DNA of 64,000 nt from Candidatus Paceibacter sp. GTDB lineage: Bacteria; Patescibacteriota; Minisyncoccia; Phycocordibacterales; GCA-2747955. The notes under the pieces are model-generated. The model was not told where the DNA came from, searched no databases, and saw only the letters and a program-made list of their open reading frames with translations. Both the position numbers and the translations under genes were made by a program. The first letter of the stretch is position 1, and every line of letters begins with the position of its first letter. Positions 56,760-62,833 of this stretch are shown here, piece after piece. The stretch lies in assembly GCA_014237915.1 (NCBI GenBank), contig JABACC010000013.1:64568-128567 (forward strand). The letters run 5' to 3'.

Positions 56760-56804
56760 AATGAGCGATATTTTAACAAATTTTCAGTTTTTAGCAAAGA
56801 AAAA

Positions 56805-56833
56805 GCGGGCAAAAAGCTTCGCTTTTTGCCCGC
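56805..56833. other. Hairpin gcgggcaaaaagc-ttc-gctttttgcccgc in the divergent rpsB/thrS intergenic region
   Basis: It is the same GC-clamp/TTCG family. It lies in the 5' region of both genes rather than a 3' end. Confidence 0.4.
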
Positions 56834-56858
56834 TTTTTCTTTTTACACTTAATTTTTA

Positions 56859-56867
56859 TGTTAAAAT
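56859..56867 (+). promoter_or_regulatory. Extended -10 TGTTAAAAT 7 nt upstream of the thrS ATG (leaderless-type)
   Basis: The sequence is ttaTGTTAAAATtcttcttATG. Confidence 0.45.
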
Positions 56868-56874
56868 TCTTCTT

Positions 56875-58620
56875 ATGGATAAAAATAGCAAAATTTACAA
56901 AATTAGGCATTCTTTTTCTCATCTTTTAGCAATTGCAATTTTAGAAAAATTTCCAGATGCAAAAATTGTTTCAGGGCCCCCCACAGAAACTGGCTTTTTT
57001 TATGGAGTTGATTTTGGAAAAGAAAAAGTTGAAGAAAAAGATTTAAAAGATTTTCAAAAAAAGATAAAAAAATTAATTTCTCAAAACCTAGCTTTCATAA
57101 AAGAAGAAAAAACAAAAGAAGAACTTTTAGAATTTTACAAAAACAACGAATACAAAAAAGAAATTACTGAAGATAAAGCCAAAGACGGAAAACCTCTTAC
57201 AATTTACAAAACAGGTGAAAATTTTTTTGATCTTTGCTCTGGGCCTCACGTGGAACACTCTGCTGATTTGCCAATTGACTCTTTTCGAATTGATAAAATT
57301 TCAGGAGCTTATTTTAAGGCAGATGAGAAAAGACCAATGCTCACAAGAATTTATGGAACAGCTTTTGAAACAAAAGAAGGTTTGGAAAATCACGACAAAA
57401 TGCTTAAAGAAGCAGAAAAAAGAGACCACCGAAAAATTGGAAAAAAATTAGATTTATTTACTTTTTCTGATTTGGTTGGGTCTGGGCTTCCTCTTTTTAC
57501 TCCCAAAGGAACTTTAATGAGAAATTTAATAACAGAAGAAATTGAAAAAATTCAAAAAAATTTTGGTTGGCAAAAAGTTACAATTCCTCATATTACAAAA
57601 AAAGATTTATACGAAAAATCTGGGCATTGGGAAAAATTTGGAGACGAGCTTTTTAAAGTTTCTGGAAAAACCGATCAAGAATTTGTTATGAAACCAATGA
57701 ACTGCCCTCATCACACACAAATATATTCAGCAAACCCAAGATCTTATAAAGATCTTCCTCTAAGATTTTCAGAAAACGGAGTTGTTTACCGAGACGAACA
57801 GCAAGGAGAGCTTCTGGGAATTTCCAGGGTTCGCGCAATTACTCAAGATGACGGCCACTCTTTTTGCACCCCAGAGCAAGTTGAAGAGGAAATTTCAAAT
57901 ATTATTTTAATAATCAAAAAATTTTACACAAAGTTTGAAATGTTTGATGAGAAAAATTTATCGGTTTCACTTTCTATTTCTGATCCAAAAAAACCTGAAA
58001 AATATATGTTGGAAGACGGGCTTTTTAAAAAGGCAGAAGAAATTTTAGAAAAAATCGCCATAAAAGAAAACTTACCTTACAAAAAAATTGAAGGTGAGGC
58101 AGCTTTTTACGGGCCAAAACTTGATTTTCATTTTAAAGATGCGCTCGGAAGGAGTTGGCAGTTAGCCACCGCTCAGCTTGATTTTTCAATGCCAAAAAGA
58201 TTTGATCTTCTCTACACAGACAGCGACGGACAGAAAAAAAACCCTGTAATGATACACCGAGCAATTGCTGGATCTTTGGAAAGATTTATGTCTGTAATGA
58301 TAGAACATTTTGCAGGAGAATTTCCTTTTTGGCTCTGCCCTGTTCAAGTTTCCGTAATTCCAATTGCTGAAAATTTAAATCAAAAAGCAAAAGAAATTAC
58401 AAAATTTTTAGAAGAAAATAATTTTAGAGTTGAAAGTGATTATTCAAAAGAATCTTTTGGAAAAAAAGTAAGATCTGCAAAAGAGCAAAAAATTCCTTAT
58501 TTTATAATTGTTGGCGAGCGTGATCCTGAAGGAAAATTCACATTAGAATCAAGAGACTCTGAAGAAAAATTAGTTTTAACTCCAGAAGAGATTTTAGAAA
58601 AATTTGAAAAAGAAAATTAA
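56875..58620 (+). CDS. thrS: Threonine--tRNA ligase (lacks the N-terminal TGS domain)
   Basis: It begins at MDKNSKIY with the editing-domain HxxxH (RHSFSHLLA). The class II core has RDHRKIGKKLDLF. The tracked upstream extension crosses a hairpin. Confidence 0.85.
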   Translation: MDKNSKIYKIRHSFSHLLAIAILEKFPDAKIVSGPPTETGFFYGVDFGKEKVEEKDLKDFQKKIKKLISQNLAFIKEEKTKEELLEFYKNNEYKKEITEDKAKDGKPLTIYKTGENFFDLCSGPHVEHSADLPIDSFRIDKISGAYFKADEKRPMLTRIYGTAFETKEGLENHDKMLKEAEKRDHRKIGKKLDLFTFSDLVGSGLPLFTPKGTLMRNLITEEIEKIQKNFGWQKVTIPHITKKDLYEKSGHWEKFGDELFKVSGKTDQEFVMKPMNCPHHTQIYSANPRSYKDLPLRFSENGVVYRDEQQGELLGISRVRAITQDDGHSFCTPEQVEEEISNIILIIKKFYTKFEMFDEKNLSVSLSISDPKKPEKYMLEDGLFKKAEEILEKIAIKENLPYKKIEGEAAFYGPKLDFHFKDALGRSWQLATAQLDFSMPKRFDLLYTDSDGQKKNPVMIHRAIAGSLERFMSVMIEHFAGEFPFWLCPVQVSVIPIAENLNQKAKEITKFLEENNFRVESDYSKESFGKKVRSAKEQKIPYFIIVGERDPEGKFTLESRDSEEKLVLTPEEILEKFEKEN

Positions 58621-58643
58621 ATTTAAAAAATTTGAAAAAAATA

Positions 58644-58673
58644 AAAAGCGCGCACCGAAGGTGCGCGCTTTTT
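58644..58673 (+). terminator. thrS terminator aaaagcgcgcaccgaaggtgcgcgctttt
   Basis: It is near-identical to 24295-24324, with compensatory stem substitutions. Confidence 0.55.
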
Positions 58674-58711
58674 ATTTTTTTCAAAATTTTAGTTTTTTAA
58701 AATATTTTTTA

Positions 58712-58738
58712 GGCGGAAAAAGCTTCACTTTTTCCGCC
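58712..58738. repeat. Palindromic element ggcggaaaaagc-ttca-ctttttccgcc with conserved 5' flank aaatatttttt (left copy bounding the 58.7-61.3 kb islet)
   Basis: It shares ~45 bp with 61292-61337 in direct orientation. The same core occurs in-frame inside parB. Confidence 0.5.
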
Positions 58739-58753
58739 CAAAAAATAAACTCA

Positions 58754-59116
58754 TCAATCTATCTCAAATTTTAAAAAATTTTTAATTCTTTTCTTATCCT
58801 CGATTGCTTTATTGCCTTTAAAATAAATATCAATAAAGAAAATTTCATTTTTTTCTATATTATAAAAATAAATAAGTCTTATTCTATCTGAGCTTTTCAA
58901 AGATCTGCATCTAACCCTAACTTTAAAAACTTGTTCAGAAAAACCCATTATTGGATCAATTCTTATTATTCTAGTGCCCTCCTTATTTTTCCCTGTTGGA
59001 AATTTACTGATTATTTTTTCCACTATAGCCAAATCTTCTTCTAAAGATATATATTTTTTCTTTAGCTTTTCAAAATCTTTTGAAAATTCTTTCGTTTCCT
59101 CTATTCTGATATTCAT
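58754..59116 (-). CDS. RelE/ParE-superfamily toxin candidate
   Basis: It is 120 aa with an N-terminal IEETKEFSKDFEKL and a C-terminal RIRLIYFYNIEKNEIFFIDIYFKG pattern. It lies directly downstream of an HTH/Panacea antitoxin gene. Confidence 0.5.
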   Translation of the reverse strand: MNIRIEETKEFSKDFEKLKKKYISLEEDLAIVEKIISKFPTGKNKEGTRIIRIDPIMGFSEQVFKVRVRCRSLKSSDRIRLIYFYNIEKNEIFFIDIYFKGNKAIEDKKRIKNFLKFEID

Positions 59117-59121
59117 AAAAT

Positions 59122-59811
59122 CTATTTAACGGAAAACTCTTCGCTTCTATAAAAAACATACTCGTAATCAATATCTTCTAAATCATTGGCTACAGCCCAA
59201 GGTATATCTCTATGAGAAATATTCGATATCTCTGTAGCATTTTTTTCTGAATACTTTTTTAAAACATCATTTATTAAATCAAGTTCTTGGCCAGTAAGTA
59301 AAGATAAGTCTGGATTTTCTCGTGGTAAAAATTTTTTTTGCTCTTTTTTATAATGGGAAGATTTTACCTCTTCTATTTTTTTATCTTCTTTCATTTTTTT
59401 AATAAGTCTTTCAAAATTTCTAGGAGTTGGCCCGTGTTTATTTTTAAAATAAGTAAGTCCCATTAACTGCTTTTGATATTTTTCATAATAATCAAAATCA
59501 ATAAAATATAAAATTTTATACAATACTGTTTGCCCAACATTTGGTTTGGCTCCAATTTGATTTAAAATATATAAAAAAACTTGTCTAAACTTATCTTCTT
59601 TTTCTTGTGGAATATTTATCTTTAAATTTTTCTCTTGGTTTTCTTTTTCAAAGAAATTAAAAAATTCTTTGATTTTATCTTCTTCATCTTTTTTTAATTT
59701 TCTTTCTCCTTTTTCTATTTTTATTAAAGTTGGTCTAGAAACACCAATCTCTTTTGCTAAATACTCTTGAGAAATGGAAAACTCCTTTCTTTTTTTCAAA
59801 ATATTAATCAT
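59122..59811 (-). CDS. XRE-family HTH fused to a Panacea (DUF4065, SocA-like) domain: PanA-type antitoxin candidate
   Basis: The N-terminal HTH reads ISQEYLAKEIGVSRPTLIKIEKGER. The C-terminal part reads VGQTVLYKILYFIDFDYY...GLTYFKNKHGPTPRNF, matching the Panacea core (LQKLLYxxxG...GPV). Confidence 0.6.
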   Translation of the reverse strand: MINILKKRKEFSISQEYLAKEIGVSRPTLIKIEKGERKLKKDEEDKIKEFFNFFEKENQEKNLKINIPQEKEDKFRQVFLYILNQIGAKPNVGQTVLYKILYFIDFDYYEKYQKQLMGLTYFKNKHGPTPRNFERLIKKMKEDKKIEEVKSSHYKKEQKKFLPRENPDLSLLTGQELDLINDVLKKYSEKNATEISNISHRDIPWAVANDLEDIDYEYVFYRSEEFSVK

Positions 59812-59907
59812 ATAATTAACATTATAAACAAATATGTAAAATATTACAAATTTTTTTGTAAATTTAATAAAAATACATTTCCTGTTTTAAACTTAAAAAA
59901 AATAAGC

Positions 59908-60156
59908 TTAAAAATCAAAATCAATTTTTCTTGTAATTTCTGTTAAATATTCTCTCAAATATGAATTAAAAGATTCACTAAAAAATATTGTTGTTTTTTC
60001 TTTTTTGTATAAAACAAATAAAGCTTCTGTTTGTTTTTTTATTTCTTTGTCTTTTGTTTTTTCCGTTACAAAAATAATAAGATCCATAAATTTATTTTCA
60101 GAAATAAATTTTGAATATTTTTGTTTTTCTTGTTTTGTTAATTTTATTGTTTTCAT
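59908..60156 (-). CDS. Hypothetical 82-aa protein preceded by a ~200-nt structured leader
   Basis: ORF preceded by a GC-rich leader (60196-60330) and an extended -10 at 60368-60376. Confidence 0.4.
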   Translation of the reverse strand: MKTIKLTKQEKQKYSKFISENKFMDLIIFVTEKTKDKEIKKQTEALFVLYKKEKTTIFFSESFNSYLREYLTEITRKIDFDF

Positions 60157-60195: not shown

Positions 60196-60330
60196 AAAAA
60201 CAAAAAGCCCACCACCAGGGTATCCCGAAGGATATATAGAAGGTTTCCCCGCTATAACCAGAACAACTAGCCCACTGATGATGGGTTTTCTATGTTGTTC
60301 TGGTTTATTTGTTTCACCATACTAATTTTT
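60196..60330 (-). ncRNA. GC-rich structured RNA element, candidate cis-regulatory leader or riboswitch (unclassified)
   Basis: The minus strand has nested hairpins: CCAGAACAAC...GTTGTTCTGG enclosing CCCAU-CAUCA-GUGGG, then UAUAG-CGGGGAAACCUU-CUAUA, then UAUCC-UUCG-GGAUA, then GGUGGUGGGCUUUUUGUUUUU. It sits between a TGCTAAAAT promoter and the ATG at 60156. Confidence 0.35.
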
Positions 60331-60367
60331 TTTTTTGAAAAAAATCAGGTTAGGCTATTACTTCCCT

Positions 60368-60498: not shown

Positions 60499-61152
60499 TT
60501 AAGGGATATCCGGGCTTTTTTCTTTTTTCATTAAGCTTTTTTTAACAATTATAGATTTATAGTGTTCCGTTTTTATAAAACCTTTTTTTATGCCTTTCTG
60601 GAAAATATCTAAAACTTGTAAACAAGGGCAGTACCTAGAATCTATTTGTATTATTTTACTAAAATTTGGTAAATTATAATTACCGAGTAAATATTTTTCT
60701 AATCCATCTTTATAATCTTTTGAATCATTATATTTATCAAAAATTATTTCAATACTTCCAGAAAAATCTTTCAACTTTGAATATTTAACAATATATTCAA
60801 GACCTTGCCTTAAAATAAAATTTCTAAAATCATTATATTCCCTACTTTCTAAATAAGGCCCTCGATAATTTTCTTTTTCTATATTTAAATTGAAAAATAA
60901 TATCTTTTCATTATTCAATAGAAAATCCATGCAACTAAAAAAATTCTTAAAATTTGCGCCCCTAATTGCTTTCAACTCTTTCTTGTAATTATTGAATAAT
61001 TTAAATCCGCACACTAGTTTCTCTATCTCGTTAACTTCATCTTCGGCAATGAGTAAAAAATTAAGATTAAAATTATCCGAACTATTATTGGTTTTATATC
61101 CTGGGTCACCACTTTCATCGATAAATAAAAAAATTGTACTACTATCTAACAT
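60499..61152 (-). CDS. DUF3800-family protein
   Basis: The N-terminal IFLFIDESGDPG matches the DUF3800 (Y/F)IDESG signature. The C-terminus has a CLQVLDIFQ (Q..D) motif. Confidence 0.5.
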   Translation of the reverse strand: MLDSSTIFLFIDESGDPGYKTNNSSDNFNLNFLLIAEDEVNEIEKLVCGFKLFNNYKKELKAIRGANFKNFFSCMDFLLNNEKILFFNLNIEKENYRGPYLESREYNDFRNFILRQGLEYIVKYSKLKDFSGSIEIIFDKYNDSKDYKDGLEKYLLGNYNLPNFSKIIQIDSRYCPCLQVLDIFQKGIKKGFIKTEHYKSIIVKKSLMKKEKSPDIP

Positions 61153-61354: not shown

Positions 61355-62833
61355 TTAAAGAATTTTTTTGAAAATTTCTGTCAAAATTTGTGGGTTTGCA
61401 GAACCGCCTGTTTTTTTCATAGCTTGACCCATAAAAAATTTTAAAAGGTTTTCGTCTCCTGCTTTAAATTTTTGAACTTGGTCAGGAAATTGCGTAGCAA
61501 TTTCCTGTACAATTTTTTCAAGCTCACCTTCGTCTGAACTTTGAATTAAATTTTTATCTCCTGCAATTTTTTCAGCATCTCCAGATCTTTCAAAAAGCTC
61601 TATTAAAATATCTTTTGCTCCTCGAGAAGAAATTTTTCCCTCTAAAATCATTGAAATTATTTTTGTCATATTTTCTGCTGAAAAATTTTTCAGTTTTTCT
61701 AAAGAATTTTCTTTTTTCATAATCCCCGCAATATCTGAAGTTAAATAATTTGAAAGCAAAGAAAAAGCTTTTTTATTTTCAGAAAAATTTAAAGATGCTT
61801 TTTCAAAAATTTTGTCATATTCTGGGTTTTGTAAAAAAAACTCTACGTCTTCTGCTTTTAAAGAAAAACTATTAAAATACCTTTCTCTTTTTTCCAAAGG
61901 AAGTTCTGGTAAATTTTCTGAAATTTCTTTTTCTGAAAATTCGGAAATTTCAGAAAGTTTATATTTTGGAATATCTGGATCTGGAAAATATCTGTAATCT
62001 TCAGAATTTTCTTTTTTTCTTTGAGAAAAAGTTTTGGCTTTATTTTCGTCCCAACCTCTTGTTTCTTGATCAACTTTTTCTCCTTTTTCTAAAACTTCGA
62101 TTTGTCTTTGTATTTCATATTCAATTGCTGACTGAACGATTTTAAAAGAATTTAAATTTTTAACCTCTGTTTTTGTTCCAAAAAACTCTGGATTATTTTC
62201 TTTATTTTCGTGCTCTGAAATGGAAACATTTGCTTCGATTCTCATCTCCCCTTTTTCTAAATTTGCTCCAGAAACATCAAGAGTTCTTAAAAGCAGCTGT
62301 AACTCTTTTGCAAAAAAAGATGCGTGATCTGAATTTTTTATTTCTGGCTCTGTTACAAGCTCCATTAACGGAACTCCAGCTCTGTTAAAATCTACATAAG
62401 AATATTCTCCTTTGTGGGAAGACGACGCGGTGTCTTCTTCTAAATGAATTCTTGTAATTGGGGAATTTGCAAGATTTCCGCCTGAAATTAATGGATATTT
62501 GTATTGAGAAATTTGGTAAGCTTTTGGCATATCTGGATAAAAATAATTTTTTCTATCAAATTCCGAAAAATCTGCAATTTTTCCAGAAAGGGCTTTTCCG
62601 ACTTTCAAAACTTTTTTTACTGCTTCGTAATTTACATAAGGCAAAGCTCCCGGTTGAGCTGTGCAGATTTCACAAATATTTTCATTTGGCTTTGAATTGA
62701 AAGGATCGTTTTTACAAGAACAAAACATTTTAGAATTTGTTTTTAGTTCTGCGTGAATTTCAAGGCCGATTGTGGGCCAATATTTTTTTCCGCTTTTGCT
62801 TTGATAAGATTTTTTTAGAAAATTTTCTTCCAT
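61355..62833 (-). CDS. gatB: Aspartyl/glutamyl-tRNA(Asn/Gln) amidotransferase subunit B
   Basis: It has YWPTIGLEIHAELKTNSKMFCSC...ICEICTAQPGALP and a C-terminal YqeY-like domain. Confidence 0.85.
   Translation of the reverse strand: MEENFLKKSYQSKSGKKYWPTIGLEIHAELKTNSKMFCSCKNDPFNSKPNENICEICTAQPGALPYVNYEAVKKVLKVGKALSGKIADFSEFDRKNYFYPDMPKAYQISQYKYPLISGGNLANSPITRIHLEEDTASSSHKGEYSYVDFNRAGVPLMELVTEPEIKNSDHASFFAKELQLLLRTLDVSGANLEKGEMRIEANVSISEHENKENNPEFFGTKTEVKNLNSFKIVQSAIEYEIQRQIEVLEKGEKVDQETRGWDENKAKTFSQRKKENSEDYRYFPDPDIPKYKLSEISEFSEKEISENLPELPLEKRERYFNSFSLKAEDVEFFLQNPEYDKIFEKASLNFSENKKAFSLLSNYLTSDIAGIMKKENSLEKLKNFSAENMTKIISMILEGKISSRGAKDILIELFERSGDAEKIAGDKNLIQSSDEGELEKIVQEIATQFPDQVQKFKAGDENLLKFFMGQAMKKTGGSANPQILTEIFKKIL

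Follow-up and report, generated by a model that had tools for sequence, protein, structure and literature searches.

A Panacea antitoxin and a predicted RelE/HigB2-type toxin form a putative toxin-antitoxin pair in a Candidatus Paceibacter genome

Introduction

Do two small adjacent genes in a Candidatus Paceibacter genome form a toxin-antitoxin (TA) operon, and if so, what kind of toxin does the operon encode? The genes lie in a 64,000-nucleotide stretch of contig JABACC010000013.1 (assembly GCA_014237915.1, positions 64,568 to 128,567 of the forward strand), which we call the window; all coordinates below are window positions. Both open reading frames (ORFs) are on the minus strand and both start with ATG. 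The upstream gene (59122..59811) encodes a protein of 229 amino acids and the downstream gene (58754..59116) a protein of 120 amino acids. A first-pass annotation of the window had proposed that the larger protein is a helix-turn-helix (HTH) and Panacea (DUF4065) antitoxin and the smaller one a RelE/ParE-like toxin. We find that the pair is probably a type II TA operon of the PanAT kind. The toxin is most likely of the RelE/HigB2 mRNase type, judging by its sequence relatives and predicted structure, which refines the generic RelE/ParE assignment.

Panacea antitoxins (PanA) were defined by Kurata et al. in 2022, with at least 88 toxin-domain partners (PMC8832971). In that study 343 PanAs carry an HTH N-terminal domain, the partners include mRNA interferases, ParE and PemK, and PanAT pairs form direct complexes. 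The pairing of Panacea with a HigB2-like toxin was already catalogued computationally in the same work, and the window pair is a new example of it. Our literature search found no link between Panacea and Patescibacteria.

Results and Discussion

The antitoxin contains HTH and Panacea domains

The 229-residue protein scores above the curated cut-offs of two Pfam families. SocA_Panacea (PF13274) matches residues 97-205 with an E-value of 3e-19 (70.4 bits, cut-off 25.7), and the match covers profile positions 1-112 of 113. HTH_3 (PF01381) matches residues 5-41 with an E-value of 6.8e-10 (39.3 bits, cut-off 23). Both domains named in the first-pass annotation are thus confirmed by curated models. 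Its description of the two ORFs was also accurate, and the peptide strings that it quoted (VLYKILYFIDFDYY, GLTYFKNKHGPTPRNF and RIRLIYFYNIEKNEIFFIDIYFKG) are present in them.

An AlphaFold model of the antitoxin, built with an alignment of 70 homologues, has a pLDDT of 89.3. The XRE-type HTH domain comprises residues 1-58 (59638..59811, minus strand), with model helices at 4-10, 15-22, 26-34 and 41-58. It is joined to the Panacea domain (residues 72-229; 59125..59598, minus strand) by a low-confidence linker at residues 58-71. The pLDDT is below 50 for residues 58-63 and above 90 over most of residues 72-229. The GP signature of the Panacea domain is H126-G127-P128-T129-P130, in which the third residue is threonine, not valine. 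G127, P128 and P130 are invariant in the 70 homologues. The GP(V) motif has been reported to be critical for neutralisation by PanA (PMC8832971).

Homologues of the antitoxin are numerous: 2407 proteins match at E<=1e-10. Identity to the window antitoxin is 54-69% among the 120 best of these, leaving aside its own database entry. The HTH domain resembles those of C-proteins, CylR2, HipB, HigA and PezA in Foldseek and in profile searches of the PDB. The HigA model TIGR02607 scores 15 bits on the antitoxin against a cut-off of 47.7. The PDB searches found no solved Panacea structure, the matches being HTH domains and, weakly, the C-terminal part of DarG. The resemblance to this toxin-binding part of DarG involves antitoxin residues 54-163 (59323-59652, minus strand). 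It is seen with the NCBIfam model antitoxin_DarG (E = 5.7e-4) and in Foldseek with the DarTG complex 7yk3 (E = 0.06-0.09), and it hints at a distant kinship of the Panacea and DarG antitoxin domains.

A Panacea domain is also present in the antitoxin of the Caulobacter SocAB system (type VI), where SocB binds the DNA clamp and the mechanism involves a proteolytic adaptor. By analogy the window antitoxin could act like SocA, presenting its toxin to ClpXP instead of inhibiting the toxin by direct binding, and the NCBIfam SocA_antitoxin model does give a weak match of 18.4 bits. This score is, however, far under the cut-off of 190 for the SocA equivalog (NF047745). SocB and the window toxin, which has a RelE fold (described below), are not related. 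In the tests of Kurata et al. the PanAT pairs formed complexes, and neutralisation required neither ClpXP nor Lon (PMC8832971). We rejected the identification of the pair as SocAB, and we regard an adaptor mechanism as very improbable. Neutralisation by direct binding is the reading that we keep.

The toxin belongs to a family related to HigB2

A word-indexed search with the 120-residue protein returned a single relative besides its own entry, and the gene of this relative immediately follows a Panacea gene on its contig. When a profile of these two sequences was used in an exhaustive HMMER search, the family grew to 532 cluster representatives at E<=1e-3, of which 206 pass E<=1e-10. An alignment of 125 members was used for a profile search of PDB sequences, a Pfam scan and an analysis of residue conservation. 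The profile retrieved chains of Vibrio cholerae HigB2 only, the five best at E-values of 0.0023-0.0033, and no ParE chain at E<=1. A second word-indexed search, made with the family alignment, returned 46 proteins. None of these has a precomputed Pfam domain and none is from an organism of the T14 group of Kurata et al., discussed below. The best curated model on the window toxin is RelE_StbE (TIGR02385), at 15.7 bits against a cut-off of 27.9. Judged by these profiles the toxins are a separate family inside the RelE/ParE superfamily, covered by no curated model. Such a family is missed by annotation pipelines, and the 125-member alignment could seed a model for it.

The AlphaFold model of the toxin has a pLDDT of 94.1 and a pTM of 0.87. 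Its layout is beta-alpha-alpha-beta-beta-beta-beta-alpha, that is strand beta1 (residues 4-7), helices alpha1 (9-21) and alpha2 (25-38), a short strand, strands beta2 (63-70), beta3 (76-86) and beta4 (91-99), and a C-terminal helix (108-119). This layout fits the fold of the superfamily, in which an N-terminal helical hairpin packs on an antiparallel beta-sheet, with or without a C-terminal helix. The structures ranked 1-47 by Foldseek in the PDB are all RelE/ParE-superfamily toxins. HigB2 comes first (8a0x, 5ja8 and 5ja9), with TM-scores of 0.57-0.63 by query length and 0.63-0.74 by target length. It is followed by archaeal RelE (from P. horikoshii), Escherichia coli RelE, HP0892, YoeB, YafQ and HigB. 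The TM-scores of superfamily matches reach 0.79 by target length.

The residues needed for the activity of HigB2 have counterparts in the toxin. In V. cholerae HigB2 the replacement of R51, R64, Y82 or K84 by alanine reduces activity 170- to 3000-fold (Hadzi et al. 2017, PMC5416850). Aligned pairwise with HMMER, the window toxin has R67, R80, Y98 and K100 at these positions and K65 at that of HigB2 K49. Across the 125 family members R80 is invariant. K65 is lysine in 123, R67 is arginine in 99 and lysine in 21, Y98 is tyrosine in 109 and phenylalanine in 16, and K100 is lysine in 119. On the model K65 and R67 lie on beta2, R80 lies on beta3, and Y98 and K100 lie at the end of beta4. The i/i+2 spacing of these residues is as expected for one face of a sheet. 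The toxin motif quoted in the first-pass annotation spans beta3 and beta4 and carries R80, Y98 and K100.

A second reference set is provided by the catalytic residues of E. coli RelE (K52, K54, R61, R81 and Y87). The basic residues on beta2 and beta3 of the window toxin are equivalent to K52, K54 and R61 of RelE. The putative catalytic tyrosine is on beta4, as in HigB2, whereas in RelE it is on helix alpha3. As the putative catalytic residues are conserved and placed on beta2, beta3 and beta4 with this spacing, the toxin is most likely a ribosome-dependent mRNase of the RelE/HigB2 type. Its RelE/ParE-like nature, as first annotated, is supported by the family profile, the Foldseek ranking and the conserved residues together.

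The same fold is used by ParE toxins, which stall DNA gyrase instead of cutting mRNA. RelE and ParE are not cleanly separated by Pfam (PMC11980606), and ParE is among the toxin domains known as partners of Panacea (PMC8832971). One family member matches the ParE_toxin family (PF05016) weakly, with an E-value of 0.0025, and the ParE-like structures 6n90 and 9w3a (PfiT) occur in the Foldseek list. The best matches in both sequence and structure are nevertheless ribosome-dependent mRNases (HigB2, RelE, YoeB and YafQ). The four HigB2 residues are all present and are conserved throughout the family, and the PDB profile search, as noted, returned no ParE chain. We therefore consider a gyrase poison improbable and favour the mRNase.

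Several results count against this assignment. No model of Pfam, NCBIfam or PADLOC reaches its threshold on the window toxin. The toxin has no match at E<=1 to the Pfam RelE/ParE families PF05016, PF06296, PF05015 and PF09907, so the support that the first-pass annotation had looked for in PF05016 is missing, as is that of the HigB-2 family PF06296 (named RelE in Pfam). Among the 125 family members PF06296 is found in two and PF05016 in one, and these matches are weak (E about 0.002). The Foldseek E-values are modest, at best 5e-4, and identity to HigB2 is only about 21%. Position 96 of the window toxin is aspartate, where 120 of the 125 relatives have glutamate.

This last difference bears on whether the window pair is a decayed or domesticated remnant, in which the 120-residue protein is no longer toxic and the HTH-Panacea protein is only a transcription factor. 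In addition to the rare E96D change, the window toxin contains a five-residue insertion (residues 51-55) that is seen in only about 30% of relatives. Kurata et al. saw no toxicity in E. coli for eight of the PanTs that they tested (PMC8832971). However, neither ORF is broken or shortened, the toxin keeps all its putative catalytic residues, and the change of glutamate to aspartate is conservative. The toxin scores a strong 124 bits with its family profile, and the predicted promoter and terminator, described below, are intact. A remnant is unlikely on this evidence, and we continue to treat the pair as a probable TA module whose 120-residue product is predicted to be toxic.

Comparison with known toxin-antitoxin systems

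The best match in sequence and structure among characterised systems is HigB2/HigA2 of V. cholerae (5ja8, 5ja9, 5mje and 8a0x), whose toxin shares its fold, its C-terminal helix and the equivalent active-site residues with the window toxin. The higBA operon is toxin-first, whereas the window module is antitoxin-first and has a Panacea domain, so it is not a higBA system. The two antitoxins have only the HTH in common. In HigA2 a disordered N-terminal segment is responsible for neutralisation, a role that in the window antitoxin probably belongs to the folded Panacea domain.

The RelBE systems of E. coli and archaea (4fxe, 4v7j and 1wmi) are likewise antitoxin-first and share the fold of a ribosome-dependent mRNase. 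RelB consists of a ribbon-helix-helix domain and a C-terminal wrapping tail, unlike the window antitoxin. The MqsR:PanA system of Burkholderia fungorum also combines a multidomain HTH PanA with an RNase toxin of RelE-related fold (PMC10440598). In the B. fungorum PanA, which has a ZBD-HTH-Panacea architecture, neutralisation is carried out by the zinc-binding domain (ZBD), and HTH-Panacea alone is insufficient (PMC10440598). The window antitoxin has no such extra domain, and versions lacking the HTH exist, an indication that neutralisation probably lies with Panacea itself.

The closest counterpart in the catalogue of Kurata et al. is PanT group T14 (pT15), which has Saccharibacteria among its taxa and includes the accessions WP_015641600.1, WP_129619247.1 and WP_067091868.1. 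In the T14 rows of their Dataset S1, at least 16 in number, the antitoxin gene comes first, the genes overlap (-8, -11 and -17 nt) and the toxin is annotated by HHpred as HigB-2 (99.7%) (PMC8832971). The T14 antitoxins with an HTH listed there are from Ca. Saccharimonas aalborgensis, a TM7 strain, Cryosericum, Flexibacter and Pedobacter, and those without an N-terminal domain are from Methanobrevibacter and Methanosphaera (PMC8832971). These T14 rows are all marked 'notest', that is, they are predictions without experimental validation (PMC8832971). The antitoxin-first order, the HTH in bacteria and its absence in Methanobacteriales, the HigB-2-like toxin and the overlaps are all as in the related loci found here. 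On a comparison of architecture, taxa, overlaps and HigB-2 annotation, the window pair probably corresponds to T14. In metagenomes the family has at least 2407 antitoxin relatives and 532 toxin representatives, far above the at least 16 T14 rows. To a TA specialist the locus itself is unsurprising and fairly ordinary. It adds a well-supported example to the Panacea network, in which a predicted RNase of RelE/HigB2 fold is paired with a folded Panacea domain as its likely neutraliser.

The two genes are tightly linked

In the window the antitoxin gene is upstream and the toxin gene downstream, separated by a spacer of 5 nt from the antitoxin stop to the toxin start (59117..59121, minus strand), so the order and gap given in the first-pass annotation were correct. 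The spacer contains no obvious Shine-Dalgarno sequence. Long ORFs are improbable by chance at a G+C content of about 25%, which makes both ORFs credible.

Linkage was assessed in 80 genome loci encoding relatives of the antitoxin together with the metagenome contig of the first-found toxin relative, 81 loci in all. The next ORF is a member of the toxin family in 61 of the 80 loci that have an ORF holding the antitoxin match (E-values of 1e-27 to 1e-46). A six-frame search added 16 loci that had been missed by the start-codon filter, one of which has no ORF with the antitoxin match, and brought the total to 77 of 81. One of the four loci without a downstream toxin match stops at the contig edge. 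In the relatives the genes overlap by 1-26 nt or are separated by 0-23 nt. The pairwise identities of antitoxins and of toxins correlate (r = 0.65), which argues for joint inheritance of the two genes.

The closest relatives of both genes are in genomes of Patescibacteria, or candidate phyla radiation (CPR) bacteria, assembled from metagenomes. The pairing is very common in such genomes, which otherwise have few annotated regulatory or defence functions. Many CPR lineages are represented among the related loci, as are bins labelled Gammaproteobacteria, Acidobacteria, Nitrospinota and Clostridia. This spread over CPR and other phyla indicates that the module is horizontally mobile.

The Panacea domain is the likely neutralising domain

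Two further loci encode Panacea proteins without an HTH. In the Methanobacteriales provirus BK063677.1 (L083, 1574-2459) a standalone Panacea protein is encoded directly beside the integrase and shares 40% identity with the window antitoxin over residues 73-229 of the latter. The next gene overlaps it and encodes a 126-residue protein that matches the toxin profile (hhalign probability 98.5, E = 3.9e-15). A contig from IMG/VR (L084, 2438-3416) has the same arrangement of an HTH-less Panacea gene and a gene of the same toxin family.

As the same toxin family is paired with Panacea alone in these two loci, the neutralising determinant of the window antitoxin is most likely its Panacea domain, and by the same comparison the HTH would be a regulatory addition. 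This agrees with the direct neutralisation reported for standalone Panacea (Ernits et al. 2023, PMC10440598). A point on the other side is that some multidomain PanAs neutralise by an element other than Panacea (PMC10440598).

The antitoxin is more conserved than the toxin

Conservation was compared across 60 paired loci (from L002-L081, plus the window), which give 1770 locus pairs. In 98.6% of these pairs the antitoxin shows higher conservation than the toxin. Mean pairwise identity is 54.8% for the whole antitoxin and 37.9% for the toxin. Within the antitoxin it is 62.8% for the Panacea domain, 44.9% for the linker and 40.0% for the HTH domain. In type II TA systems the antitoxins are usually expected to evolve faster than the toxins, which is the opposite pattern. 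The inverted conservation suggests that the fast-evolving partner is not the only constraint on Panacea, and it offers a concrete, testable clue to a role beyond partner binding. A sensory role for Panacea has been proposed by Ernits et al. (2023, PMC10440598), and the conservation pattern fits this proposal without proving it.

These identities also bear on whether the pair is mainly a phage-defence switch acting by abortive infection. Here the Panacea domain would sense an infection trigger and release or activate the RNase, which is compatible with TA biochemistry. The Panacea domain is by far the most conserved part of the module, and the proposed sensory role would suit such a function. 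Copies are found beside the provirus integrase and on the IMG/VR contig described above, and the window copy lies in an accessory patch of low G+C content with a DUF3800 gene. Set against this, the PADLOC matches are to generic HTH models only. Just three relatives were found in 2.9 million viral contigs, a search of plasmids found no toxin relative, and no neighbouring defence gene is conserved across the related loci. We regard a mainly defensive role as a real but minor possibility beside the PanAT-type TA operon, with which it is compatible.

A broader reading can be offered tentatively. The module may be a widespread, horizontally mobile stress or infection switch of the ultra-small CPR/Patescibacteria, present also in other phyla and in viruses of methanogens. 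Panacea might then evolve more slowly than any other part through its sensing of a conserved trigger, and the RNase would be the part that diversifies. If true, this would give a sequence-level handle on the hypothesis that Panacea is a sensor, and a handle on defence and self-regulation in genome-reduced episymbionts.

A predicted promoter and a palindrome precede the pair

A sigma-70-like promoter is predicted at 59821..59849 on the minus strand. It has a -35 box TTGTAA and a -10 box TATAAT separated by a 17-nt spacer, matches the consensus at 10 of 12 positions and is the best-scoring candidate in the region. With a distance of only 9 nt between the -10 box and the ATG, the predicted transcript would be nearly leaderless. 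The perfect palindrome TGTAA-TATT-TTACA (59835..59848) overlaps the -35 box. It has the form that the operator of a dimeric XRE repressor would take, and the HTH domain may bind it as its operator.

TGTAA-N4-TTACA, with at most one mismatch allowed, was sought in the 120-nt upstream regions of 62 antitoxin genes. The palindrome occurs 19 times in 15 of the 62 regions, against 0.8 occurrences expected from shuffled sequences; the shuffles kept base composition only, and the loci are related to each other and very A+T-rich. Versions with a spacer of 3, 5 or 6 nt occur only 1-4 times. In four loci two copies of the palindrome are 21-22 bp apart. A promoter overlapped by a palindrome of conserved spacing makes autoregulation plausible. 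It weakens the case that both elements are identified by consensus and by enrichment in very A+T-rich DNA from loci that are not independent.

Downstream of the toxin gene a G+C-rich hairpin with runs of T and A on either side (58626..58690) is predicted to be a bidirectional intrinsic terminator, common to the pair and the convergent thrS gene. The terminator scan gave 6 sites where 0.3 were expected. A second, very stable hairpin (58703..58747) comes directly after the toxin stop codon; it is G+C-containing and extended by A/U pairs, has no canonical U-tract and is distinct from the terminator. The RNA fold of 58625-58760, which includes the two hairpins, has a z-score of -11.9. Sub-threshold Rfam matches around 58.6-58.8 kb were dismissed as artefacts of these hairpins.

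We envisage that a single promoter upstream of 59811 would give a bicistronic minus-strand transcript ending at the hairpin terminator shared with thrS. The Panacea domain would bind the toxin directly and neutralise it, and the HTH would bind TGTAA-N4-TTACA over the -35 box and repress the operon. Toxin freed from the antitoxin would enter the ribosomal A site and cleave mRNA, which would stop translation.

Genomic context

The contig of the window is a metagenome scaffold of 169 kb (ENA ERZ23487945). The genes that flank the pair are housekeeping genes. The threonyl-tRNA synthetase gene thrS (56761..58620, plus strand) is convergent with the pair, gatB (61355..62833) is on the minus strand, and rpsB and tsf are further upstream of the pair than gatB. 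The G+C content is 0.20-0.26 across 58.7-61.2 kb and 0.29-0.35 in the flanking housekeeping genes. From its composition and content this interval between thrS and gatB looks like a small accessory patch or island. It contains the TA pair, an orphan ORF of 82 codons (59908-60156, minus strand), a LOOT-like RNA and a DUF3800 gene. A search of the window found no second copy of the module.

We rejected a three-gene system that includes the 82-residue ORF or the DUF3800 gene, neither of which is present in any of the 80 related loci. As these genes are not linked to the pair elsewhere, the module consists of two genes. The DUF3800 protein (60499-61152, minus strand; 217 residues) matches its Pfam family with an E-value of 6.6e-8, and its match to the PADLOC model PDC-S26 is very weak. 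The LOOT RNA match (Rfam RF03000, an sRNA; 60221-60356, minus strand) is in the 342-nt gap between the 82-residue ORF and the DUF3800 gene. It covers the full model (1-121) and scores 46.4 bits, exactly the gathering score, with an E-value of 8.6e-7.

The product of thrS matches tRNA_SAD (weakly), tRNA-synt_2b and HGTP_anticodon only, and a TGS domain is not recorded. As listed, the thrS ORF (56761-58620, plus strand) begins 38 codons before a more plausible start (MDKNSKIYKIRHS...), and the extra N-terminal stretch has a non-native look.

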